Source: Escherichia coli (GTDB taxonomy: Bacteria; Pseudomonadota; Gammaproteobacteria; Enterobacterales; Enterobacteriaceae). Taken from it: 64,000 nucleotides of DNA. Position numbers and translations under genes: made by a program. Shown here one piece after another: positions 25,895 through 39,658 of this stretch. The DNA lies in NCBI RefSeq assembly GCF_003334355.1, contig NZ_QOWP01000014.1, one strand, 5' to 3'. Under the pieces are notes generated by a model. It had not been told where the DNA came from, did no database searches, and was given only the letters and a program-made list of their open reading frames with translations. How positions within the stretch are numbered: the first letter of the stretch is position 1; the number at the start of each line of letters is the position of its first letter.

Positions 25895-26274
25895 TCATGT
25901 CTGTGACGCTAAAGTAACAAAGTATTCACCTTATGTCCATACAGGTTTTGATTGAAATCATGAAACTGTGCACATTTTAACAACTTGACATATATAACGT
26001 TTCAAAGTTGTAACTATGCACAAATGTAGACTTTACGTAGGAAAGGAGTTTTTAACGATTATTAAACTATAAAAATCCGAATTGAACCGATTCACTTACC
26101 AATTTTGTGATTTTTAATTCAATTAAAACGAATTTAAATTCATTCTACATATTGAGAGGGATTGAGGCTGAGCTTTACAAACGGTTTCTTTTTAAGCAAC
26201 TCATCTTCAACCATGCATAAAGCGGGTGCATTCGCTGCCGTATACCATTATTCTTGATCTGACGGAAGTCTTTT

Positions 26275-26315
26275 TGTAACAATTCAAACTTCTTTGATGT
26301 AAACAAATTAATACA
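26275..26315 (+). promoter_or_regulatory. Putative TyrR boxes in the aroP promoter region
   Basis: TGTAAAcaaattaATACA (26298-26315) resembles the TyrR box TGTAAA-N6-TTTACA; weaker TGTAAC half-site at 26275; aroP is a known TyrR target. Confidence 0.5.
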
Positions 26316-26385
26316 ACAAACGGAATTGCAAACTTACACACGCATCACTGCGTAGATCAAAAAAACAACCACCGCACGAGGTTTC

Positions 26386-27759
26386 ATGATGGAAGGTCAA
26401 CAGCACGGCGAGCAGCTAAAGCGCGGCCTTAAAAACCGCCATATTCAGCTTATCGCGCTGGGTGGCGCGATAGGGACCGGGTTATTCCTGGGTAGCGCCT
26501 CCGTAATACAGTCCGCAGGGCCAGGGATTATCCTGGGTTACGCCATTGCTGGTTTTATCGCCTTTCTGATCATGCGTCAGCTGGGTGAAATGGTGGTCGA
26601 AGAACCTGTCGCAGGCTCCTTTAGCCACTTTGCTTATAAATACTGGGGCAGTTTTGCCGGTTTCGCCTCTGGCTGGAACTACTGGGTACTGTACGTTTTA
26701 GTTGCCATGGCTGAGCTGACTGCCGTGGGTAAATACATTCAGTTCTGGTATCCGGAAATCCCCACCTGGGTTTCTGCCGCCGTATTCTTTGTGGTGATTA
26801 ACGCCATCAACCTGACCAACGTTAAAGTGTTTGGCGAGATGGAGTTCTGGTTTGCCATTATCAAAGTTATCGCGGTGGTCGCGATGATCATCTTCGGCGG
26901 CTGGCTGCTATTCAGTGGCAACGGCGGCCCGCAGGCGACCGTTAGCAACCTGTGGGATCAGGGTGGTTTCCTGCCGCACGGCTTCACCGGGCTGGTGATG
27001 ATGATGGCGATTATCATGTTCTCGTTCGGTGGTCTGGAACTGGTGGGGATCACCGCAGCAGAAGCTGATAACCCGGAGCAAAGTATCCCGAAAGCGACTA
27101 ACCAGGTTATCTACCGCATCCTGATTTTCTATATTGGTTCGTTAGCCGTTCTGCTCTCACTGATGCCGTGGACCCGCGTTACCGCCGATACCAGTCCGTT
27201 TGTGCTGATCTTCCACGAGTTAGGCGATACCTTTGTGGCGAATGCGCTGAACATCGTGGTACTGACTGCGGCGCTCTCCGTGTACAACAGCTGCGTATAT
27301 TGCAACAGCCGTATGCTGTTTGGTCTGGCACAACAGGGTAATGCGCCAAAAGCGCTGGCGTCTGTCGATAAACGCGGCGTACCGGTTAACACCATTCTGG
27401 TGTCTGCGCTGGTTACAGCATTGTGCGTATTGATTAACTATCTTGCTCCGGAATCCGCATTTGGCCTGTTAATGGCACTGGTGGTATCCGCACTGGTGAT
27501 CAACTGGGCGATGATCAGTCTGGCGCATATGAAGTTCCGTCGCGCCAAGCAGGAACAAGGCGTGGTAACTCGCTTCCCTGCTCTGCTTTATCCGCTGGGT
27601 AACTGGATCTGCCTGCTGTTTATGGCGGCGGTACTGGTGATTATGCTGATGACCCCAGGAATGGCGATTTCGGTATACCTGATCCCGGTATGGCTGATCG
27701 TGTTAGGTATCGGCTATCTGTTTAAAGAGAAAACCGCCAAAGCCGTAAAAGCGCATTAA
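26386..27759 (+). CDS. aroP: aromatic amino acid:H+ symporter (APC family)
   Basis: ORF-track 457 aa starting MMEGQQHGEQLKRGLKNRHIQLIALGGAIGTGLF, recognised as AroP. Confidence 0.95.
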   Translation: MMEGQQHGEQLKRGLKNRHIQLIALGGAIGTGLFLGSASVIQSAGPGIILGYAIAGFIAFLIMRQLGEMVVEEPVAGSFSHFAYKYWGSFAGFASGWNYWVLYVLVAMAELTAVGKYIQFWYPEIPTWVSAAVFFVVINAINLTNVKVFGEMEFWFAIIKVIAVVAMIIFGGWLLFSGNGGPQATVSNLWDQGGFLPHGFTGLVMMMAIIMFSFGGLELVGITAAEADNPEQSIPKATNQVIYRILIFYIGSLAVLLSLMPWTRVTADTSPFVLIFHELGDTFVANALNIVVLTAALSVYNSCVYCNSRMLFGLAQQGNAPKALASVDKRGVPVNTILVSALVTALCVLINYLAPESAFGLLMALVVSALVINWAMISLAHMKFRRAKQEQGVVTRFPALLYPLGNWICLLFMAAVLVIMLMTPGMAISVYLIPVWLIVLGIGYLFKEKTAKAVKAH

Positions 27760-27768
27760 TCTCTCTAC

Positions 27769-27793
27769 GCCCTCACCCGTACAGGGTGAGGGC
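27769..27793. terminator. Shared hairpin between convergent aroP and ampE (10-bp perfect stem)
   Basis: gccctcaccc-gtaca-gggtgagggc, 10 bp after the aroP stop and 9 bp before the ampE stop. Confidence 0.6.
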
Positions 27794-27801
27794 AATAATC
27801 T

Positions 27802-28656
27802 TTACACCAACGCCCCGTAAATCGTCAGTAGTGCAATCACCACCACGACCACGAACGAGGTTTTCTTCGCCATTGAAACCGCTGCCTTCGGCGTCTCCAC
27901 CTTATCGACATGCGGTTCACGCGCCAGAGAGAACTGCGCCAGACGCGTTAACACCTGATTCTGCGAAGTATGGAAATCACCCAGCGAAGCAAACCAGGCC
28001 GGTAACGCTTTCTCACCATGACCGATCAAGGCATATACCACACCCGCAAGACGAACCGGCACCCAATCCAGTACATGAAGCACGGCATCAATGCCGGACT
28101 GTAAACGATGATGCGGCGTCTGATATCGCGCCAGCCAGTATTGCCATGCACGCAAAAACGCATACCCCATCAGCGTAACGGGTCCCCAGGTTCCCCCCAC
28201 AATCAGCCAGAACAGCGGTGCAAGATAAAAACGAAAGTTAATCCACAGCAATGCATCTTGCAGCTCACGCAAATACTCACGTTCGTCGCAGCCTGCCGGG
28301 ACGCCGTGAATCATGGTGAGTTCGCCAGCCATCGTGGCACGGGCATGGCTATCATTACGTGAAGCAGCTGTCAGATAAGCATGATAATGAAGACGAACTT
28401 TACCTGCGCCAATACACAGCAAACCAATCAGCAGCCACACCAGTAGCGTGGGAACGTTGAACAATACTCCCTGCAATGCGCGTAACAGTAAAAAAGTCAC
28501 GCCCATCGCAATAATGGTCATGCCTAACGTGCGCCCGAGAGAAAAATGTTTCACCCGCCGAAAGAACGCTTCAAGACGATGATCAAGCTGCCAGTGCTCG
28601 CCCAACTTAAACAGGCGCTCGAAAATTAACACCAGTAAGGTTGTAAATAGCGTCAT
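27802..28656 (-). CDS. ampE: AmpE inner membrane protein (ampDE operon)
   Basis: ORF-track 297 aa trimmed to [23 protein letters not shown] (284 aa); ATGA start/stop overlap with ampD. Confidence 0.92.
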
Positions 28657-29204
28657 GTTGTCTCCTTGCTGACCAGCACACGAAACCGTGCCCAATCAAA
28701 TGCAGGACCGGGATCGGTTTTCCGATCCGGCGCAATATCACAATGGCCCGTCATGTTTTTAGCGATATCCGGATAGCAATCAATCAGTGCCCGCGTAACC
28801 GCCGCAAGCTGTTGATACTGCGCATCGGTATACGCCAGCGTATCGGTGCCTTCAAGCTCAATCCCAATAGAAAAATCATTGCAGCGTTCGCGCCCCTGAT
28901 ACTGAGAGACTCCCGCATGCCATGCACGTTTATCGAAAGGAACATACTGGACTATTTCACCATCACGGCGAATCAAACAGTGAGCGGAGACGCGCAAATG
29001 GGCGATCTCAGCAAAGAAAGGATGTGCCTGCGGATCAATAGTTCCAGTGAATAATGCGTCGATCCACGGACCGCCAAACTCGCCTGGCGGCAGGCTAATA
29101 TTGTGCACCACCAGCAGGGTGGGTGTTTCGTCATCCGGGCGGCAATCGTAATGTGGTGAGGGAACGCGGCGCGCGCCAACCAGCCACCCCTGTTCTAACA
29201 ACAT
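28653..29204 (-). CDS. ampD: 1,6-anhydro-N-acetylmuramyl-L-alanine amidase
   Basis: ORF-track 183 aa recognised as AmpD. Confidence 0.95.
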
Positions 29205-29231
29205 GCAGGATCTCCTTATATGTGGTGCTAA

Positions 29232-30185
<954 letters not shown>

Positions 30186-30197
30186 TAGTTGACAGAT

Positions 30198-30223
30198 TTA
30201 TCCGCTCCATCGCGGGCGGATAA
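30198..30223 (+). terminator. Hairpin after nadC (ttatccgc ... gcggataa), weak terminator candidate
   Basis: 8-bp inverted repeat 12 bp after the nadC stop; followed by tctcccctt (poor U-tract). Confidence 0.35.
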
Positions 30224-30387
30224 TCTCCCCTTCCCCAACTTTCTTCGTAACGCCTCGCAAATTTCTTGTCTTTCGCTGCAACGAAATAAAAAACCTCGGA
30301 ATCTGCTTTCCCGTTTCGTTTTTTGCCCCTCGCCTGTGCTGATGGCGTTTGCCAAAGTAGCGCCAACCAAATCAAGGAGCGAAACAG

Positions 30388-30828
30388 ATGGACAAGCAAC
30401 GCGGTTTTACACTTATCGAACTGATGGTGGTTATTGGCATCATTGCCATTTTAAGCGCCATTGGTATTCCCGCTTATCAAAACTACCTGCGCAAAGCCGC
30501 ACTCACCGACATGCTACAAACCTTTGTGCCTTACCGTACCGCCGTAGAGTTGTGCGCGCTGGAACATGGTGGATTAGATACCTGCGACGGTGGCAGCAAT
30601 GGCATTCCCTCGCCTACCACCACCCGCTATGTTTCAGCCATGAGTGTGGCAAAGGGCGTGGTGTCGCTGACCGGGCAAGAAAGTCTCAATGGGCTAAGCG
30701 TCGTCATGACACCGGGTTGGGATAACGCAAACGGCGTCACCGGCTGGACGCGCAACTGCAATATTCAAAGTGACAGCGCATTGCAGCAAGCCTGCGAAGA
30801 TGTCTTCCGCTTTGATGACGCCAACTAA
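30388..30828 (+). CDS. ppdD: type IV prepilin PpdD (N-methylation class)
   Basis: ORF-track 146 aa; prepilin leader MDKQRGFTLIELMVVIGIIAILSAIGIP typical of type IV pilins. Confidence 0.93.
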   Translation: MDKQRGFTLIELMVVIGIIAILSAIGIPAYQNYLRKAALTDMLQTFVPYRTAVELCALEHGGLDTCDGGSNGIPSPTTTRYVSAMSVAKGVVSLTGQESLNGLSVVMTPGWDNANGVTGWTRNCNIQSDSALQQACEDVFRFDDAN

Positions 30829-30837
30829 GGAGCGGCA

Positions 30838-32223
30838 ATGAATATTCCACAGCTCACTGCCCTGTGTCTGCGTTATCATGGAGTCTTGCTGGATGCCAGC
30901 GAAGAGGTGGTTCATGTTGCGGTAGTCGATGCACCTTCGCATGAGCTACTGGACGCATTGCATTTCGCTACCACCAAACGTATTGAGATCACCTGCTGGA
31001 CGCGCCAACAAATGGAAGGTCACGCCAGTCGCACACAACAGACATTGCCCGTAGCTGTTCAGGAGAAGCATCAGCCCAAAGCAGAGTTGCTAACTCGAAC
31101 GTTACAATCTGCGCTGGAACAACGCGCGTCTGATATTCATATCGAACCAGCGGACAATGCCTACCGCATCCGCTTGCGTATCGACGGCGTATTGCATCCT
31201 TTACCGGATGTTTCACCGGATGCCGGAGTCGCATTAACCGCCAGATTAAAAGTGCTGGGAAACCTGGATATTGCGGAACATCGCCTGCCGCAGGACGGGC
31301 AATTCACTGTCGAACTGGCAGGAAACGCCGTCTCATTTCGTATTGCGACCTTACCATGTCGGGGTGGTGAAAAGGTGGTATTAAGGTTGTTACAGCAGGT
31401 GGGTCAGGCACTGGATGTCAACACGCTTGGAATGCAGCCGTTACAACTGGCGGACTTTGCTCATGCCTTGCAACAACCACAGGGACTGGTGCTGGTAACT
31501 GGCCCTACCGGCAGCGGCAAAACGGTCACGCTTTATAGTGCCCTGCAAAAGCTGAATACCGCTGACATTAATATTTGTAGCGTCGAAGATCCAGTTGAGA
31601 TCCCCATAGCCGGACTAAACCAGACGCAAATCCATCCGCGTGCCGGACTCACCTTTCAGGGCGTTTTGCGTGCGTTATTGCGCCAGGATCCTGACGTCAT
31701 CATGATCGGAGAGATCCGCGATGGCGAAACAGCAGAGATCGCTATTAAAGCGGCGCAAACTGGTCACCTGGTGTTGTCTACCCTACACACTAATTCCACC
31801 TGCGAAACGCTGGTACGTTTACAGCAAATGGGGGTCGCCCGCTGGATGCTATCATCGGCGCTTACGCTGGTAATAGCCCAGCGTCTGGTACGCAAACTTT
31901 GCCCACATTGTCGCCGGCAGCAAGGGGAGCCCATCCACATTCCAGACAATGTATGGCCATCGCCGCTGCCCCACTGGCAGGCACCCGGTTGTGTACATTG
32001 CTACCACGGTTTTTATGGTCGTACGGCCTTATTTGAAGTTCTGCCCATAACGCCGGTCATTCGTCAGCTTATTTCCGCTAATACCGACGTTGAATCGCTG
32101 GAAACGCACGCACGACAGGCGGGTATGCGTACGCTTTTTGAAAACGGCTGCCTGGCCGTAGAGCAAGGCTTAACCACCTTTGAAGAGTTAATCCGCGTAC
32201 TGGGGATGCCGCATGGCGAGTAA
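30838..32223 (+). CDS. hofB: type IV pilus / T2SS-like assembly ATPase (GspE/PilB family)
   Basis: ORF-track 461 aa; Walker A GPTGSGKT and C-terminal tetracysteine motif; recognised as HofB. Confidence 0.93.
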   Translation: MNIPQLTALCLRYHGVLLDASEEVVHVAVVDAPSHELLDALHFATTKRIEITCWTRQQMEGHASRTQQTLPVAVQEKHQPKAELLTRTLQSALEQRASDIHIEPADNAYRIRLRIDGVLHPLPDVSPDAGVALTARLKVLGNLDIAEHRLPQDGQFTVELAGNAVSFRIATLPCRGGEKVVLRLLQQVGQALDVNTLGMQPLQLADFAHALQQPQGLVLVTGPTGSGKTVTLYSALQKLNTADINICSVEDPVEIPIAGLNQTQIHPRAGLTFQGVLRALLRQDPDVIMIGEIRDGETAEIAIKAAQTGHLVLSTLHTNSTCETLVRLQQMGVARWMLSSALTLVIAQRLVRKLCPHCRRQQGEPIHIPDNVWPSPLPHWQAPGCVHCYHGFYGRTALFEVLPITPVIRQLISANTDVESLETHARQAGMRTLFENGCLAVEQGLTTFEELIRVLGMPHGE

Positions 32224-33415
32224 GCAACTCTGGCGCTGGCATGGCATAACCGGCGACGGCAATGCGCAAGATGGGATGCTATGGGCAGAGAGCCGTACTT
32301 TACTGCTTATGGCACTACAGCAACAGATGGTTACCCCACTAAGCCTGAAGCGAATCGCCATCAATTCTGCGCAGTGGCGAGGAGATAAAAGCGCGGAAGT
32401 CATTCATCAACTGGCGACGCTACTCAAAGCAGGGTTAACGCTTTCTGAAGGGCTGGCTCTGCTGGCGGAACAGCATCCCAGTAAGCAATGGCAAGCGTTG
32501 CTGCAATCGCTGGCGCACGATCTCGAACAGGGCATTGCTTTTTCCAATGCCTTATTACCCTGGTCAGAGGTATTTCCGCCGCTCTATCAGGCGATGATCC
32601 GCACGGGTGAACTGACCGGTAAGCTGGATGAATGCTGCTTTGAACTGGCGCGTCAGCAAAAAGCCCAGCGTCAGTTGACCGACAAAGTGAAATCAGCGTT
32701 ACGTTATCCCATCATCATTTTAGCGATGGCAATCATGGTGGTTGTGGCAATGCTGCATTTTGTTCTGCCGGAGTTTGCCGCTATCTATAAGACCTTCAAC
32801 ACCCCACTACCGGCACTAACGCAGGGGATCATGACGCTGGCAGACTTTAGTGGCGAATGGAGCTGGCTGCTGGTGTTGTTCGGCTTTCTGCTGGCGATAG
32901 CCAATAAGTTGCTGATGCGCCGACCGACCTGGCTTATAGTGCGGCAGAAATTGCTGTTACGCATCCCGATTATGGGTTCACTGATGCGGGGACAAAAACT
33001 CACGCAGATCTTTACGATTCTGGCGCTGACACAAAGTGCAGGCATTATTTTTTTACAGGGCGTAGAGAGCGTCAGAGAAACAATGCGCTGCCCGTACTGG
33101 GTGCAACTTCTGACACAAATCCAGCACGATATCAGTAACGGTCAACCCATCTGGCTGGCGCTAAAAAATACCGGTGAGTTTAGCCCGCTCTGTTTGCAAT
33201 TAGTGAGAACAGGAGAGGCATCCGGCTCTCTGGATCTCATGTTAGACAACCTCGCCCATCATCATCGGGAAAACACAATGGCGCTGGCGGATAACCTCGC
33301 AGCCTTACTGGAACCGGCGTTGCTGATCATAACGGGAGGAATTATTGGTACGCTGGTGGTGGCAATGTATCTGCCAATTTTCCATTTAGGCGATGCGATG
33401 AGTGGGATGGGATAA
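32213..33415 (+). CDS. hofC: type IV pilus / T2SS-like inner membrane platform protein (GspF/PilC family)
   Basis: ORF-track 400 aa recognised as HofC; overlaps hofB by 11 nt. Confidence 0.93.
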   Translation: MASKQLWRWHGITGDGNAQDGMLWAESRTLLLMALQQQMVTPLSLKRIAINSAQWRGDKSAEVIHQLATLLKAGLTLSEGLALLAEQHPSKQWQALLQSLAHDLEQGIAFSNALLPWSEVFPPLYQAMIRTGELTGKLDECCFELARQQKAQRQLTDKVKSALRYPIIILAMAIMVVVAMLHFVLPEFAAIYKTFNTPLPALTQGIMTLADFSGEWSWLLVLFGFLLAIANKLLMRRPTWLIVRQKLLLRIPIMGSLMRGQKLTQIFTILALTQSAGIIFLQGVESVRETMRCPYWVQLLTQIQHDISNGQPIWLALKNTGEFSPLCLQLVRTGEASGSLDLMLDNLAHHHRENTMALADNLAALLEPALLIITGGIIGTLVVAMYLPIFHLGDAMSGMG

Positions 33416-33443
33416 CGCTGGCGTGTTGCTCCACGCCAGCGTT
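33414..33443. terminator. Shared hairpin between convergent hofC and guaC (12-bp stem) overlapping the hofC stop codon
   Basis: aacgctggcgtg-ttgctc-cacgccagcgtt perfect inverted repeat in the 34-bp gap. Confidence 0.6.
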
Positions 33444-33449
33444 GGGAGA

Positions 33450-34493
33450 TTACAGGTTGTTGAAGATGCGGTTTTCTTGTTCCTGCACACGAATAAACGT
33501 GGTGCGCTTGGTCAGCTCTTTCAGGCGTGAAGCCCCAACGTATGTACAAGCTGAACGCAGGCCGCCCAAAATATCTCGCGCGGTATTTTCAACCGGGCCT
33601 CGCAGCGGCAGCTTAACGGTTTTACCTTCTGCTGCGCGATATTCCGCAACGCCGCCAACGTGACGTTTCATCGCAGACTCGGAGCTCATGCCGTAGAACA
33701 GCATAAATTTCTCGCCGTTCTCCTCAACGATGCGACCGCCGCTCTCTTCGTGGCCCGCCAGCATGCCGCCAAGCATGACGAAATCGGCACCGCCGCCAAA
33801 GGCTTTCGCCACATCGCCCGGCGTGGTGCAGCCACCATCGCTGACGATCATTCCGCCCAGACCGTGCGCAGCATCGGCACATTCGATTACCGCAGAAAGT
33901 TGCGGATAACCGACGCCTGTTTTGACGCGAGTTGTACAAACAGAACCTGGGCCAATGCCAACTTTAACGATATCAGCACCGGAGAGGATAAGCTCCTCAC
34001 ACATTTCACCAGTCACTACGTTACCAGCACAAATGGTTTTGGTCGGCCACGCTTCACGCGCTTTCGCAACGAACTGCACGAAGTGTTCGGAATAACCATT
34101 CGCCACGTCAATACAAACGAAGTTTAATGCCGGGTTCAGGTCGAGAATCTGTTTAGTTTTTTCGAAATCCGCATCAGACGTACCGGTAGAAACCATCACA
34201 TGTTTCAGCACATCAGCGGAAGAATTGTTGATAAACGCTTGCCACTCTTCGACAGAATAGTGTTTATGCACAGCAGTCAAAATATCAAAAGAAGCCAGCG
34301 CAGAGGCCATAGAAAATGTGCCTACGGTGTCCATATTTGCGGCGATAATCGGCACGCCGGACCAGCTCTGACCTGAATGTTTGAAGGTGAATTGACGTTC
34401 CAGTTCAACATCGGAACGGCTTTTAAGAGTGGAGCGTTTAGGGCGGATGAGAACGTCTTTAAAACCTAACTTCAGATCTTCTTCAATACGCAT
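33450..34493 (-). CDS. guaC: GMP reductase
   Basis: ORF-track 347 aa starting [35 protein letters not shown], recognised as GuaC. Confidence 0.97.
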
Positions 34494-34717
34494 GTGCGGA
34501 TTCCTGGGGTTAATGGCTATAAGGGTAAGAGCGCAACTCCAGTGACGCTATCATACGCACTAATCAATGCGGCGCAAGACTGCGAAATTGTCTTTTTTTA
34601 CGCTACAATCCCATAAATTTACCTGGTAAATAGTGAGCGAACGTTTCATCAATTTCGCTTTCGTGCACTCATTTTTAACGTTTTGATAATCATGATGAAT
34701 TCCCGGGAATATAAATT

Positions 34718-35338
34718 ATGAGGTATATAGTTGCCTTAACGGGAGGCATTGGCAGTGGCAAGAGTACCGTTGCCAATGCGTTTGCTGATCTCGGAATTAA
34801 CGTCATTGATGCCGATATTATTGCGCGTCAGGTGGTTGAACCAGGTGCACCTGCGCTACATGCCATTGCTGATCACTTTGGCGCTAACATGATTGCTGCT
34901 GATGGAACATTGCAGCGCCGGGCCTTGCGCGAGCGGATCTTCGCCAACCCGGAAGAGAAAAACTGGCTTAACGCCCTGCTGCATCCGCTGATTCAGCAAG
35001 AGACGCAACACCAGATCCAGCAAGCTACTTCCCCCTATGTACTGTGGGTTGTGCCATTGCTGGTAGAAAACTCACTGTATAAAAAAGCGAATCGAGTGCT
35101 GGTGGTGGATGTCAGCCCAGAAACGCAACTTAAGCGCACCATGCAGCGCGATGATGTAACTCGCGAGCATGTCGAACAAATCCTTGCTGCTCAGGCAACG
35201 CGCGAAGCCCGCCTTGCCGTGGCAGATGACGTCATTGATAATAACGGCGCACCGGATGCTATCGCATCGGATGTTGCCCGCCTGCACGCACACTATTTGC
35301 AGCTTGCGTCGCAGTTTGTCTCACAGGAAAAACCGTAA
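34718..35338 (+). CDS. coaE: dephospho-CoA kinase
   Basis: ORF-track 206 aa; P-loop GGIGSGKST; recognised as CoaE. Confidence 0.95.
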
Positions 35339-36081
35339 TGCAGACCCAGGTCCTTTTTGAACATCCACTAAATGAAAAAATGCGTACATGGCTGCGCATT
35401 GAGTTTTTGATTCAGCAACTCACCGTTAATTTACCCATCGTTGACCACGCTGGCGCGCTGCATTTCTTCCATAATGTCAGTGAATTACTGGATGTTTTCG
35501 AGCGCGGCGAAGTCCGCACTGAGCTGTTGAAAGAACTTGACCGGCAGCAACGTAAACTCCAGACCTGGATTGGCGTGCCTGGCGTGGACCAGAGCCGTAT
35601 TGAAGCATTAATTCAGCAGTTAAAAGCGGCGGGGAGCGTATTAATTTCCGCGCCGCGTATCGGGCAATTTCTGCGTGAAGATCGTTTGATTGCTCTGGTG
35701 CGTCAGCGACTGAGCATCCCAGGCGGCTGTTGCAGCTTTGATTTACCTACATTGCACATTTGGCTGCATCTACCCCAGGCGCAGCGCGACAGCCAGGTAG
35801 AAACCTGGATTGCCAGCCTGAACCCGCTCACCCAGGCACTTACCATGGTGCTGGATTTAATTCGCCAGTCGGCCCCCTTCCGTAAACAAACCAGCCTGAA
35901 TGGTTTTTATCAGGATAACGGTGGCGATGCCGACTTGCTGCGCCTGAATCTGTCGCTCGATTCACAGCTTTATCCGCAAATTTCCGGACATAAGAGCCGT
36001 TTTGCCATTCGTTTTATGCCGCTGGACACTGAAAACGGACAGGTACCGGAACGTCTGGATTTCGAACTGGCCTGTTGCTAA
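35338..36081 (+). CDS. zapD: cell division protein ZapD (FtsZ-associated)
   Basis: ORF-track 247 aa recognised as ZapD (YacF); 1-nt overlap with coaE stop. Confidence 0.93.
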
Positions 36082-36090
36082 GGAGTAAAA

Positions 36091-36288
36091 ATGTCAGAAA
36101 CTATTACGGTGAATTGCCCAACCTGCGGGAAAACGGTGGTGTGGGGTGAAATCAGCCCGTTTCGGCCATTTTGCTCCAAACGTTGTCAGCTGATCGACCT
36201 CGGAGAATGGGCTGCTGAAGAAAAACGAATCCCCAGCAGTGGCGATCTTTCCGAAAGCGATGACTGGAGCGAAGAGCCAAAGCAGTGA
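36091..36288 (+). CDS. yacG: DNA gyrase inhibitor YacG (zinc finger)
   Basis: ORF-track 65 aa with CPTCGK...CSKRCQ zinc-binding cysteines; recognised as YacG. Confidence 0.93.
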
Positions 36289-36304
36289 CATTTGTCTGAT
36301 GCCG

Positions 36305-36510
36305 CACGTAGGCCTGATAAGACGCGGGCAGCGTCGCATCAGGCATCTTGTGCAAATGTCGGATGCGGCGTGAACGCCTTATCTGACCTACAAAAACAAA
36401 TTTATCAATGAGTTATAAATCCCTGTAGGCCTGATAAGACGCGCCAGCGTCGCATCAGGCATCGTGTGCGAATGTCAGATGCGGCGAAAACGCCTTATCT
36501 GACATACACA
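36305..36510. repeat. REP cluster (four REP units, two BIME-like pairs) between yacG and mutT, last unit overlapping the mutT 3-prime end
   Basis: Alternating gtaggcctgataagacgcg...gcgtcgcatcaggc and ggatgcggcg(tg/aa)aacgccttatctgac(c/a)taca units read directly from the sequence. Confidence 0.8.
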
Positions 36511-36893
36511 CGCTTAAGCTTCGCAATTACCTGTTCATTGGCTGGCGGAAACTCATCGGCATTAAGACCGACCAGCGACATCCACTCACCGGGTTGCCCT
36601 TCTTTACCCCACGGCTCCCCTTCCCAGCGTTCGACCAGCCAAAACCACAGTGTTATATGCCTGTCCGGGAATTCATATTCCAGTTTTTCAAATAGCGAAA
36701 AATGTTGGGGGGTAATCCCGACTTCTTCCTGAAGTTCACGCACCACCGCCTGTTCCGGCGTTTCACCCATTTCAATTTTACCGCCGGGAAACTCCAGTTT
36801 ATTCGCCATGTGCGCATCTGCTGCGCGACGCGTTATAAAGATTTCATTGTTCTCGTTGCGAATAATACCTACCGCAATTTGCAGCTTTTTCAT
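36495..36893 (-). CDS. mutT: 8-oxo-dGTP diphosphatase (Nudix)
   Basis: ORF-track 132 aa; Nudix box GGKIEMGETPEQAVVRELQEEVG; C-terminus runs into a REP element and ends ...KRVYVR. Confidence 0.93.
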   Translation of the reverse strand: MKKLQIAVGIIRNENNEIFITRRAADAHMANKLEFPGGKIEMGETPEQAVVRELQEEVGITPQHFSLFEKLEYEFPDRHITLWFWLVERWEGEPWGKEGQPGEWMSLVGLNADEFPPANEQVIAKLKRVYVR

Positions 36894-36906
36894 TGTCTTA
36901 AACCTA

Positions 36907-36936
36907 TAAAAAAGGCGCAGAATCCTGCGCCTTTTA
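36907..36936 (-). terminator. Rho-independent terminator after secA (before mutT)
   Basis: aaggcgcag-aatc-ctgcgcctt 9-bp stem; on the minus strand followed by ttttttatagg. Confidence 0.65.
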
Positions 36937-36952
36937 CTTTAACAGTTAGCTT

Positions 36953-39658
36953 TTATTGCAGGCGGCCATGGCACTGCTTGTATTTTTTACCAGAACCGCA
37001 CGGGCAAGGATCGTTACGTCCTACTTTGCGCTCTCCAGTTTGCGCCGCCAGTGCAGCTGCGGCTGCAGAGTCGTCATCCTGATGGCTAAGCTGCTGCATT
37101 TGCGCTAAACGCTCGGCTTCCATACGACGCTGTTGTTCCAGCTCCTCAACCTCTTCAGGCATACGTACCTGGACTTTGCTCAACGTGCTGATAACTTCAT
37201 ATTTTAACGACTCCAGCATCGCTGCAAACATGGAGAACGATTCACGTTTGTATTCCTGCTTCGGATCTTTCTGTGCGTAGCCACGCAGGTGGATACCCTG
37301 ACGCAGATAGTCCATCGCTGCCAGGTGCTCTTTCCACAGGGAGTCAAGCGTTTGCAGCATGACGCCTTTCTCGAAGTGACGCATCATCTCAGCACCAACC
37401 ACTTCTTCTTTACGCTGATACACTTCGATGGACTGCGCCAGAATTCGCTCACGCAGCGTCTCTTCATGCAGTTCTGGTTCTTTATCCAGCCACTCGGCAA
37501 TTGGCAAATCGAGGTCGAAATCGTTCTTCAGACGTTCCTGCAGCCCCGGAATATCCCACATTTCTTCCAGCGACTGTGGTGGAATGTAGGCATCAATGGT
37601 CGCTTTGAACACATCTTCACGAATGCTGTTAATGGTTTCGCTCACATCGCTGACATCCAACAGTTCGTTACGCTGGGAGTAAATGGCGCGACGCTGATCG
37701 TTAGCCACGTCATCATATTCCAGCAGTTGCTTACGAATGTCGAAGTTACGGCTTTCAACTTTACGCTGGGCGTTGGCAATCGCTTTAGTCACCCACGGGT
37801 GTTCAATGGCTTCGCCTGGCTTCATACCCAGTTTACGCATCATGCCGGATACTCGGTCGGAAGCAAAAATACGCATCAGCGCATCTTCCATCGACAGGTA
37901 GAAACGGGAAGAACCAGCATCCCCCTGACGACCAGAACGACCGCGCAACTGGTTATCGATACGACGGGATTCGTGACGCTCGGTACCGATGATATGCAGG
38001 CCACCTGCTTCCAGTACCGCATCGTGACGTACCTGCCAGTCGGCTTTAATTTTTTCAATTTGCTCTGCGGTCGGATTTTCCAGCGCGGCAACTTCTGCCT
38101 GCCAGCTACCACCGAGCACAATATCTGTACCACGACCCGCCATATTGGTCGCGATAGTCACCGCAGCCGGATAACCTGCCTGAGCAACAATCGCCGCTTC
38201 GTTGGCGTGGAATTTGGCGTTCAGGACGTTGTGCTTAATACCGGCTTTGGTCAGTTCGTTTGACACCAGCTCCGATTTTTCGATGGAGATAGTACCCACC
38301 AGCACCGGCTGGCCTTTCGCAGTACGTTCTTTGATATCTTCAATGATCGCCTGAATTTTTTCCGCTTCAGTCATGTAGACCAGGTCCGGCAGATCTTTAC
38401 GAATCATTGGACGGTTGGTCGGAACAACGACGGTATCCAGCTTGTAGATTGAGCTAAATTCGAAAGCTTCGGTATCAGCAGTACCGGTCATCCCCGCCAG
38501 TTTTTCATACAGACGGAAGTAGTTCTGGAAGGTGATCGAAGCCAGCGTTTGGTTTTCGTTCTGGATCTGCACACCTTCTTTCGCTTCCACAGCCTGGTGC
38601 AGACCATCGGACCAGCGACGGCCCTGCATGGTACGACCGGTGTGTTCGTCAACGATGATAACTTCACCATCTTTAACGATGTAGTCGACGTCACGGGTAA
38701 ACAGCGCATGAGCGCGCAGCGCCGCCGTTACGTGGTGCATCAGCATGATGTTGGCCGGAGAGTACAGAGACTCCCCTTCATCCATGATGCCCTCTTTCAC
38801 CAGCAGTTCTTCAATCAGCACCAGACCACGTTCGGTCAGGTTCACCTGGCGAGATTTTTCGTCCACCGAGAAGTGGCCTTCGCCCTGGAAGGTTTCGGAG
38901 TCTTCTTTTTCCTGACGGATCAGGTGCGGAATAATTTTATTCACGCGTTTATACATTTCCGAGCTGTCTTCTGCCGGGCCGGAAATGATCAGCGGTGTAC
39001 GCGCTTCATCGATCAGGATGGAGTCCACTTCGTCCACCAGCGCATAGTGCAGTTTACGCTGTACACGTTCTTCAGGGCTGAACGCCATGTTGTCGCGCAG
39101 GTAGTCAAAGCCGTATTCGTTGTTCGTACCGTAAGTGATGTCAGCTGCGTAAGCTTCGCGCTTTGCCGGTGCTGGCATGCCCGGCAGGTTGATACCGACA
39201 GTCAGGCCAAGGAATTCAAACAGCGGACGGTTGTTTTCGGCGTCACGTTGCGCCAGGTAGTCGTTGACGGTAACTACGTGCACGCCTTTACCGGTTAGTG
39301 CGTTCAGGTAAGCAGGCAGCGTTGCGGTCAGGGTTTTACCTTCACCGGTACGCATTTCGGCGATGCAGCGTTCGTTAAGAACCATACCGCCGAGTAACTG
39401 AACGTCGAAGTGACGCATACCAAAGACGCGCTTACTTGCCTCACGTACCACGGCGAAAGCTTCCGGGATCAGATTTTCCAGCACTTCGCCTTTTTCCAGA
39501 CGTGCACGAAACTCTGCGGTTTTCCCTTTCAGTTCTTCGTCGGAGAGTTTTTCCATCTCCGGTTCCATGGCATTGATGATGTTGACCACTTTGCGCATCC
39601 GGCGCAGGGTGCGATCGTTACGACTACCGAAAACTTTAGTTAATAATTTGATTAGCAT
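36953..39658 (-). CDS. secA: preprotein translocase ATPase SecA
   Basis: ORF-track 901 aa; C-terminal zinc-binding [14 protein letters not shown]; recognised as SecA. Confidence 0.98.

Follow-up and report, generated by a model that had tools for sequence, protein, structure and literature searches.

The ppdD, hofB and hofC genes and their products

The window, i.e. the whole 64-kb stretch of DNA that was analysed, consists of K-12-like E. coli DNA and carries the following three genes between nadC and guaC:

30388-30828, plus strand: ppdD, major type IVa prepilin (146 aa; 6-aa leader and 140-aa mature protein)
30838-32223, plus strand: hofB, hexameric assembly ATPase of the PilB/GspE family (461 aa)
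32213-33415, plus strand: hofC, inner-membrane platform protein of the PilC/GspF family (400 aa)

Upstream, nadC ends at position 30185 and downstream, guaC, which is encoded on the minus strand, ends at 33450. The coordinates of the three genes match those of b0108, b0107 and b0106 in the MG1655 RefSeq annotation base for base, and over the three genes we found a single base difference, which gives Ile at residue 279 of HofC. The open reading frames contain neither frameshifts nor internal stops. The last 11 nt of hofB are shared with the start of hofC (32213-32223, ATGGCGAGTAA) and this arrangement suggests that translation of the two genes may be coupled. Thus, the overlap reported in the initial annotation was found at these positions, its gene identities were confirmed by the NCBIfam equivalogs given below and by the match to MG1655, and its placement of the genes between nadC and guaC agrees with the ORF map and the MG1655 comparison. 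Elsewhere in the window, a block of mismatches to MG1655 (25938-26150) turned out to be merely a 1-nt indel within a T-run.

The N-terminus of PpdD (MDKQRG|FTLIELMVVIGIIAILSAIGIPAY, beginning MDKQRG|FTLIELMVV) has the properties of a type IVa prepilin: the basic 6-aa leader closes with Gly-1, and the mature part starts with Phe+1, has Glu+5 and includes a hydrophobic alpha1-N segment. The protein scored 269 bits against the NCBIfam equivalog PRK10574 (cut-off 138) and 35.9 bits against the GFxxxE domain model TIGR02532 (cut-off 16.3). When we compared mature PpdD with the subunit of the EHEC pilus (PDB 6GV9/6GMS), 139 of the 140 residues were the same and T121A was the sole difference. PpdD involves four Cys residues (56, 66, 124, 136), and these residues together with the 6GV9 match are what is expected of a pilin that polymerises and has a globular head with disulfide-bonded C-terminal Cys. 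PpdD would be made as prepilin, its leader would be cut after Gly6 and Phe+1 would be N-methylated by GspO/PppA, which is encoded elsewhere.

HofB matched the Pfam T2SSE family (PF00437) over model positions 2-370 of 370 (E = 1.3e-146), and in its N-terminal domain Pfam detected only a partial MshEN. The sequence hallmarks of the PilB/GspE secretion ATPases are all present: Walker A (GPTGSGKT, 222), Asp box (VEDPVE, 249), Walker B (VIMIGEIRD, 287), His box (GHLVLSTLH, 309) and a tetracysteine Zn motif (CPHC, 355 and CVHC, 385). Among proteins of solved structure, HofB is closest to PilB (5ZFR/5TSG, E about 1e-105) and to EpsE (1P9R). HofB scored 823 bits against the equivalog PRK10436 (cut-off 617) but remained under the cut-offs of the canonical equivalogs for PilB (TIGR02538, 485.8 vs 675.65) and GspE (TIGR02533, 457.6 vs 630.25). 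Therefore, it belongs to a separate enterobacterial clade, and judged by its motifs and family scores HofB is predicted to work like PilB while forming this distinct clade under PRK10436. HofC contains two T2SSF domains (64-186, E = 4e-30; 269-388, E = 1e-23) and three hydrophobic stretches (YPIIILAMAIMVVVAMLHFVL, WSWLLVLFGFLLAIA, LLEPALLIITGGIIGTLVVAMYLPIF), which is the pattern of two repeats and three transmembrane segments typical of PilC/GspF proteins. It scored 658 bits against the equivalog PRK10573 (cut-off 401) and matched M. xanthus PilC (3JC8) with E = 3e-44. Residue 279, which is Ile here, is Thr, Ala, Pro or Ser in all other sequences examined, and the exact 57-mer of this Thr279Ile allele was present in 28 of 5426 complete E. 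coli genomes, so that the allele is rare.

The three genes might be regarded as part of a type II secretion system with PpdD as pseudopilin rather than a true pilin. The PGAP/RefSeq name of HofB (type II secretion system protein GspE) points in this direction, its match to EpsE (1P9R) is almost as good as that to PilB, and a heterologous type II secretion system can assemble PpdD (Sauvonnet 2000, cited in PMC2649431). However, the filament built from PpdD is a true type IVa pilus whose structure was solved by cryo-EM/NMR (6GV9), and PpdD reached just 29 bits with the GspG model (cut-off 88.85). Among the non-specific families, PilB gave the highest score for HofB (486 bits, compared with 458 bits for GspE), with both scores below the cut-off. 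Genes for GspC, GspL, GspM and GspD are not adjacent, and the partners that PpdD requires in reconstitution are the PilMNOPQ-like hofMNOPQ products (bioRxiv 10.1101/856302). Taken together, these data make an assignment to type II secretion highly improbable.

Regulatory elements around the operon

The spacer between nadC and ppdD and the region between the convergent genes hofC and guaC contain the following elements:

30241-30262, plus strand: CRP-S-type CRP site TTCTTCGTAACGCCTCGCAAAT; 16-bp core 30244-30259, centre 136.5 nt upstream of the ppdD ATG
30263-30387, plus strand: promoter-proximal region and leader of ppdD, with conserved blocks in alignments
30276-30281, plus strand: conserved block CTGCAA (cross-species leader alignment)
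about 30319-30334, plus strand: conserved block TTTTTTGCCCCTCGCC (cross-species leader alignment)
about 30349-30364, plus strand: conserved block TTGCCAAAGTAGCGCC (cross-species leader alignment)
30374-30379, plus strand: Shine-Dalgarno sequence AAGGAG upstream of ppdD
33413-33444, no strand assigned: perfect palindromic hairpin between hofC and guaC; 12-nt arms 33414-33425 and 33432-33443, 100% complementary

The initial annotation had proposed a search for a CRP-S site upstream of ppdD, and this search was positive. As CRP-S site we considered a 22-bp CRP-type site with C6 and G17 and the core TGCGA-N6-TCGCA. TTCTTCGTAACGCCTCGCAAAT carries C6 and G17, its right half-site is perfect and its left one has two mismatches; in the nadC-ppdD spacer it is the sole match to the core with no more than two mismatches. 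The site is identical in four diverse E. coli strains, and the probe of the published CRP EMSA (30174-30304 of the window) covers it. Of 22 Enterobacterales species, 16 have a matching site between -138 and -154 (shuffles: mean 0.17, maximum 2), and the half-site cores T.CG and CGC form invariant columns in an alignment with 51% identity otherwise. The 16-mer pattern by itself (two mismatches allowed) was not enriched across the window (33 found vs 45 expected) and thus, the weight of the site comes from its positional conservation across species only and not from the rarity of the 16-mer. The putative placement at 30241-30262 rests on the boundaries of the EMSA probe and on this phylogenetic footprint.

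Previous experiments showed that the ppdD promoter is induced 90-fold by Sxy, that this induction is lost in crp and cyaA backgrounds, and that a fragment of the promoter gives a weak specific band-shift with CRP (PMC1635313). The poor expression of the module in laboratory E. coli, which the initial annotation had mentioned, agrees with the literature (PMC1635313, PMC3330819). When we scanned 30000-33700 for sigma-70 consensus promoters, none was found (2.9 expected), which fits an activator-dependent promoter. A weak ppdD promoter would need CRP-cAMP at the non-canonical CRP-S site and Sxy/TfoX as co-activator, and the operon would be silent in laboratory cultures because Sxy is scarce there.

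The leader blocks CTGCAA, TTTTTTGCCCCTCGCC and TTGCCAAAGTAGCGCC are kept between genera that show saturation at synonymous sites. Consensus folding of 15 orthologous leaders with RNAalifold yielded no consensus pairs, and an Rfam scan of 29900-34800 (E up to 1) gave no match. A single-sequence fold of the E. coli leader, in which 30312-30324 pairs with the Shine-Dalgarno region, was marginal (z = -2.1) and lacked covariation support, and a sigma-54 reading of the CTGCAA block, which was done by eye, failed since a GG is missing at the -24 spacing; both candidates were rejected. It is conceivable but rather unlikely that the blocks are binding sites for a second regulator or an element of leader-level control. 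If this was true, it could account for the failure to find a natural condition that induces the operon. At the other end, the hairpin between hofC and guaC folds as RNA into a 13-bp stem (-24.4 kcal/mol, z = -4.4) and has a T-run on neither side. Both transcripts probably have their 3' ends at this hairpin.

Conservation, selection and related systems

The locus was found in 5424 of 5426 complete E. coli genomes, and in O157:H7, APEC and two other lineages the operon is intact and its genes have the same lengths. The order ppdD-hofB-hofC is conserved across more than 20 Enterobacterales genera and the genes were intact in every ortholog examined. Relative to E. albertii we obtained dN/dS values of 0.04-0.08 (ppdD 0.042, hofB 0.076, hofC 0.061), which are in the same range as those of the flanking housekeeping genes (0.011-0.077). 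The operon is intact and under purifying selection.

These data bear on the possibility that the operon is a decaying relic, which lacks a function in nature and whose reading frames are open by chance or because of recent ancestry. The operon is silent when E. coli is cultured in the laboratory, no PpdD was made by any of 72 ECOR strains, and DNA uptake could barely be detected once sxy was induced (PMC3330819). The lack of a sigma-70 consensus promoter in 30000-33700 and the observation that HofB and HofC diverge between genera faster than their neighbours also fit with decay. However, purifying selection effectively refutes this explanation, and we consider it extremely unlikely: neither the near-universal presence in E. 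coli nor the integrity of the genes in more than 20 genera is expected of a relic, the catalytic motifs are all kept, the regulatory CRP-S site is conserved, and the genes build pili once expressed (bioRxiv 10.1101/856302, PMC2649431). The view that the machinery is not decayed, which had been put forward in the initial annotation, is thus upheld by the lack of frameshifts, by the intact conserved motifs and by the published Sxy-induced expression.

The ppdD-hofB-hofC operon of E. coli K-12 (b0108-b0106) and hcpABC of EHEC (haemorrhagic coli pilus) represent the same locus with identical gene boundaries, and the rare Thr279Ile exchange in HofC is the only difference between our sequence and that of K-12 over the three genes. 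The pilA-pilB-pilC core of P. aeruginosa and M. xanthus serves the same functions through its major pilin, the extension ATPase PilB and the platform PilC, and shares the domain families (GFxxxE prepilin, T2SSE, two T2SSF). Unlike this core, HofB falls under the PilB equivalog cut-off and pilD is not adjacent here. With 461 aa, HofB is also shorter at its N-terminus, by about 100-120 aa, than PilB of the P. aeruginosa/M. xanthus type (566-588 aa), and its MshEN is partial. pilA-pilB-pilC is regulated by sigma-54/PilSR, whereas the ppdD operon is controlled by CRP-S/Sxy instead. In H. influenzae pilABCD, the orthologous genes for pilin, ATPase and platform follow a Sxy-requiring CRP-S site in the same order (PMC1635313). 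However, the H. influenzae operon includes the peptidase gene pilD and this organism is naturally transformable, whereas E. coli takes up only traces of DNA in a process that depends on Sxy and lambda Red recombinase (PMC3330819).

Pilus assembly and biological role

We identify the locus with near certainty as the ppdD-hofB-hofC operon on the E. coli chromosome (hcpABC of EHEC), which forms the central part of the enterobacterial type IVa pilus/competence machinery. HofB would act as PilB/GspE-type hexameric ATPase that is docked on polytopic HofC and supplies the energy for pulling pilin out of the inner membrane and for polymerising it. The resulting filament would exit via the HofQ secretin, and assembly would need HofMNOP and the minor pilins PpdA, PpdB, YgdB and PpdC, which are encoded at other loci. 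Reconstitution of the PpdD pilus requires twelve further genes (hofB, hofC, hofMNOPQ, ppdA, ppdB, ygdB, ppdC, gspO; bioRxiv 10.1101/856302). Ten of them, including that for the prepilin peptidase, are absent from the window, and a search of the whole 64-kb window for prepilin and T2SSE ATPase motifs retrieved only ppdD and hofB. The description of the module as a complete minimal set therefore holds for the presence of prepilin, ATPase and platform but not for sufficiency.

Expression experiments carried out by others are in line with a pilus. EHEC forms HCP pili, and PpdD was found on the surface of K-12 after expression of hcpABC (PMC2649431). Induction of sxy led to processed 15-kDa PpdD on western blots and to hofQ-dependent DNA uptake, with hofQ and not ppdD, hofB or hofC being the gene tested (PMC3330819). 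The link of the module to DNA uptake, which had been made in the initial annotation, agrees with this literature (PMC1635313, PMC3330819), with the uptake assay addressing hofQ. Its second link, to the use of DNA as a nutrient, is contested, since according to a 2018 review three laboratories failed to reproduce this phenotype (PMC6135910). We infer that the operon responds to a natural inducing signal and that its main natural role could be DNA uptake or adhesion.

The operon, the structure of its pilin, its regulation by Sxy/CRP-S and the reconstitution of the pilus are all published and thus already known. As a discovery the locus carries little weight; it is an operon that is strongly conserved in E. 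coli although it is silent in the laboratory.

Gene organization and protein identity

The ORFs and the 11-nt overlap reported in the initial annotation were borne out, and the type IV pilus core operon (hcpABC in EHEC) is laid out as follows:

nadC, ending at 30185, upstream flank of ppdD
ppdD, 30388-30828, + strand, ORF of 146 aa
hofB, 30838-32223, + strand, ORF of 461 aa
hofC, 32213-33415, + strand, ORF of 400 aa
hofB/hofC overlap, 32213-32223, + strand, 11 nt, ATGGCGAGTAA
guaC, ending at 33450, convergent to hofC

Strong Shine-Dalgarno sequences precede ppdD (AAGGAG) and hofB (TAAGGAG), and a weaker one (GGGGA) is found for hofC, the translation of which is probably coupled to that of hofB. 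The 34-nt gap between hofC and the convergent guaC is filled by a perfect 12/13-bp palindrome (33413-33444, AACGCTGGCGTG N6 CACGCCAGCGTT; RNA fold -24.4 kcal/mol, z = -4.4), which was rejected as canonical intrinsic terminator because a T-run is absent on both strands. An 8-bp inverted repeat (TTATCCGC N10 GCGGATAA, 30198-30223) located 13 nt past the nadC stop codon is probably a nadC 3' hairpin; in Citrobacter, this position carries longer REP-like GCCGGATAAGGCG repeats.

Window positions 25937-37937 are the reverse complement of 110000-122000 in E. coli K-12 MG1655, from which they differ by about 50 substitutions and a single 1-nt indel, and b0108, b0107 and b0106 are exact counterparts of the three ORFs. 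The segment 30100-33500 was found in 5424 of the 5426 complete E. coli genomes (coverage at least 80%), almost always as single copy, and strain AR_0369 is 100% identical over it. About 25 substitutions are packed into 160 bp of aroP (27375-27534), nearly all at distances divisible by three, which fits third-codon positions; the surrounding kilobases show isolated differences only. This cluster resembles a short tract acquired by recombination from a diverged donor.

The sole operon difference from MG1655 is T for C at 33048, which places Ile at HofC residue 279. Thr occupies this position in MG1655, in E. albertii and in three of the other four E. coli examined (the fourth has Ser), and it is Thr, Ala or Pro in each of the 24 Enterobacterales orthologs compared. 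The residue falls in the second T2SSF repeat, within its conserved AG(I/L)x motif, and the exact 57-mer with T at 33048 occurs in only 28 of 5426 complete genomes. The exchange could be neutral or mildly hypomorphic.

All three proteins score above the curated cut-offs of their NCBIfam equivalogs (PRK10574, PRK10436 and PRK10573 for PpdD, HofB and HofC). PpdD begins with a class III signal peptide (MDKQRG|FTLIE) and has four cysteines, and its mature form matches the EHEC type IV pilus subunit (PDB 6GV9, 6GMS) at 139 of 140 residues, T121A (precursor numbering) being the lone mismatch. HofB is a T2SSE ATPase over its full length (PF00437, E = 1.3e-146), and its N-domain is a partial MshEN; the protein contains Walker A at residue 222 (GPTGSGKT), the Asp box at 249 (VEDPVE), Walker B at 287 (VIMIGEIRD), the His box at 309 (GHLVLSTLH) and a tetracysteine motif (CPHC/CVHC). 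Its closest solved structures are PilB (5ZFR, 5TSG) and EpsE (1P9R). Against the canonical models for PilB and for GspE, its scores stay under the trusted cut-offs. HofC contains both T2SSF repeats and is closest to M. xanthus PilC (3JC8).

In every genome listed, HofB bears the RefSeq/PGAP name 'type II secretion system protein GspE', which could mislead automated readers. This label is a naming convention and no evidence of a type II secretion role. That the module belongs to type II secretion is excluded on three grounds: the structure of the PpdD pilus is solved, PpdD scores poorly against GspG (29 bits vs. a cut-off of 88.85), and no other Gsp genes lie close by.

Regulatory region of ppdD

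A search upstream of ppdD for a CRP-S site, as suggested in the initial annotation, yielded a single candidate. The nadC-ppdD spacer holds only one match to TGCGA-N6-TCGCA at up to two mismatches (30244-30259), and it forms the core of the following element:

CRP-S-type site, 30241-30262, 22-mer TTCTTCGTAACGCCTCGCAAAT, C6 and G17 present

These two bases set CRP-S apart from canonical CRP sites. Taken alone, the match is not rarer than chance in the window, but it gains weight because its position is conserved across species. Exactly one such spacer match was found in 16 of 22 Enterobacterales species, always 138-154 nt 5' of the ppdD ATG, and shuffled spacers gave a mean of 0.17 and a maximum of 2 species, a comparison that provides no strict probability since the species are related. 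The half-site cores are the invariant columns in an alignment with 51% identity elsewhere, the 6-nt stretch between them varies freely, and the Serratia spacer carries a perfect TGCGA-N6-TCGCA.

The site is enclosed by a 131-bp ppdD fragment (window 30174-30304), which CRP shifts weakly but specifically (Cameron and Redfield, PMC1635313). Sxy induces ppdD 90-fold with complete dependence on CRP and cAMP (PMC1635313). We found no sigma-70 consensus promoter in 30000-33700, which fits an activator-dependent ppdD promoter.

In the ppdD leader (30263-30387), the blocks CTGCAA, TTTTTTGCCCCTCGCC and TTGCCAAAGTAGCGCC are kept across genera with saturated synonymous sites (leaders of orthologous loci L002-L017). 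RNAalifold returned no consensus structure for the orthologous leaders; in the minimum-energy fold of the E. coli leader alone, 30312-30324 is paired to the Shine-Dalgarno region (marginal z = -2.1).

Function, completeness and selection

Following sxy induction, processed PpdD was detected, and very low-level transformation occurred when lambda Red provided recombination functions; a hofQ mutation abolished this sxy-induced transformation (PMC3330819). In EHEC, PpdD is built into haemorrhagic coli pili, and K-12 expressing hcpABC carries PpdD at the cell surface (both summarised in PMC2649431). The initial interpretation of the module is supported, except on two points. The three genes are the core and not a complete machine, since a six-frame motif scan of the 64-kb window detected no further prepilin or secretion ATPase, and the proposed link to DNA as a nutrient is contested, as this phenotype was not reproducible in three laboratories (2018 review, PMC6135910).

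The order ampD-nadC-ppdD-hofB-hofC-guaC-coaE is kept in Escherichia albertii, Citrobacter, Enterobacter, Pseudocitrobacter, Leclercia, Kluyvera and one Klebsiella sp., and a slightly varied order recurs in Brenneria, Dickeya, Serratia, Erwinia, Pantoea, Tatumella, Yersinia and Edwardsiella. The aligned regions of the orthologs contain no internal stops. Four divergent E. coli (O157:H7, APEC, a Brazilian and a bloodstream isolate) share identical gene lengths and the same overlap, with no pseudogene flags. Against E. albertii, for which synonymous sites are unsaturated, dN/dS was 0.042 (ppdD), 0.076 (hofB) and 0.061 (hofC), compared with 0.011-0.077 for five flanking housekeeping genes. Taken together, the neighbour-like dN/dS, kept synteny, lack of stops and intactness in four lineages indicate that the module is under ordinary purifying selection, although it is silent in the laboratory. 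This selection signal and the conservation exclude a decaying relic, in line with the earlier view that the machinery is not decayed.

When loci L002-L025, from other Enterobacterales, were compared with window 30388-33415, identity within Enterobacteriaceae was 78-92% for PpdD, 64-77% for HofB and 55-70% for HofC; the neighbouring guaC stays at 91-94%. Between genera, the assembly proteins HofB and HofC are thus much less conserved than the pilin, the reverse of what surface-exposed major pilins usually show.

Apart from minor loose ends (the rare HofC allele, the unexplained conserved leader blocks and a pilin conserved above its assembly proteins between genera), ppdD-hofB-hofC is already known at textbook level for E. 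coli.
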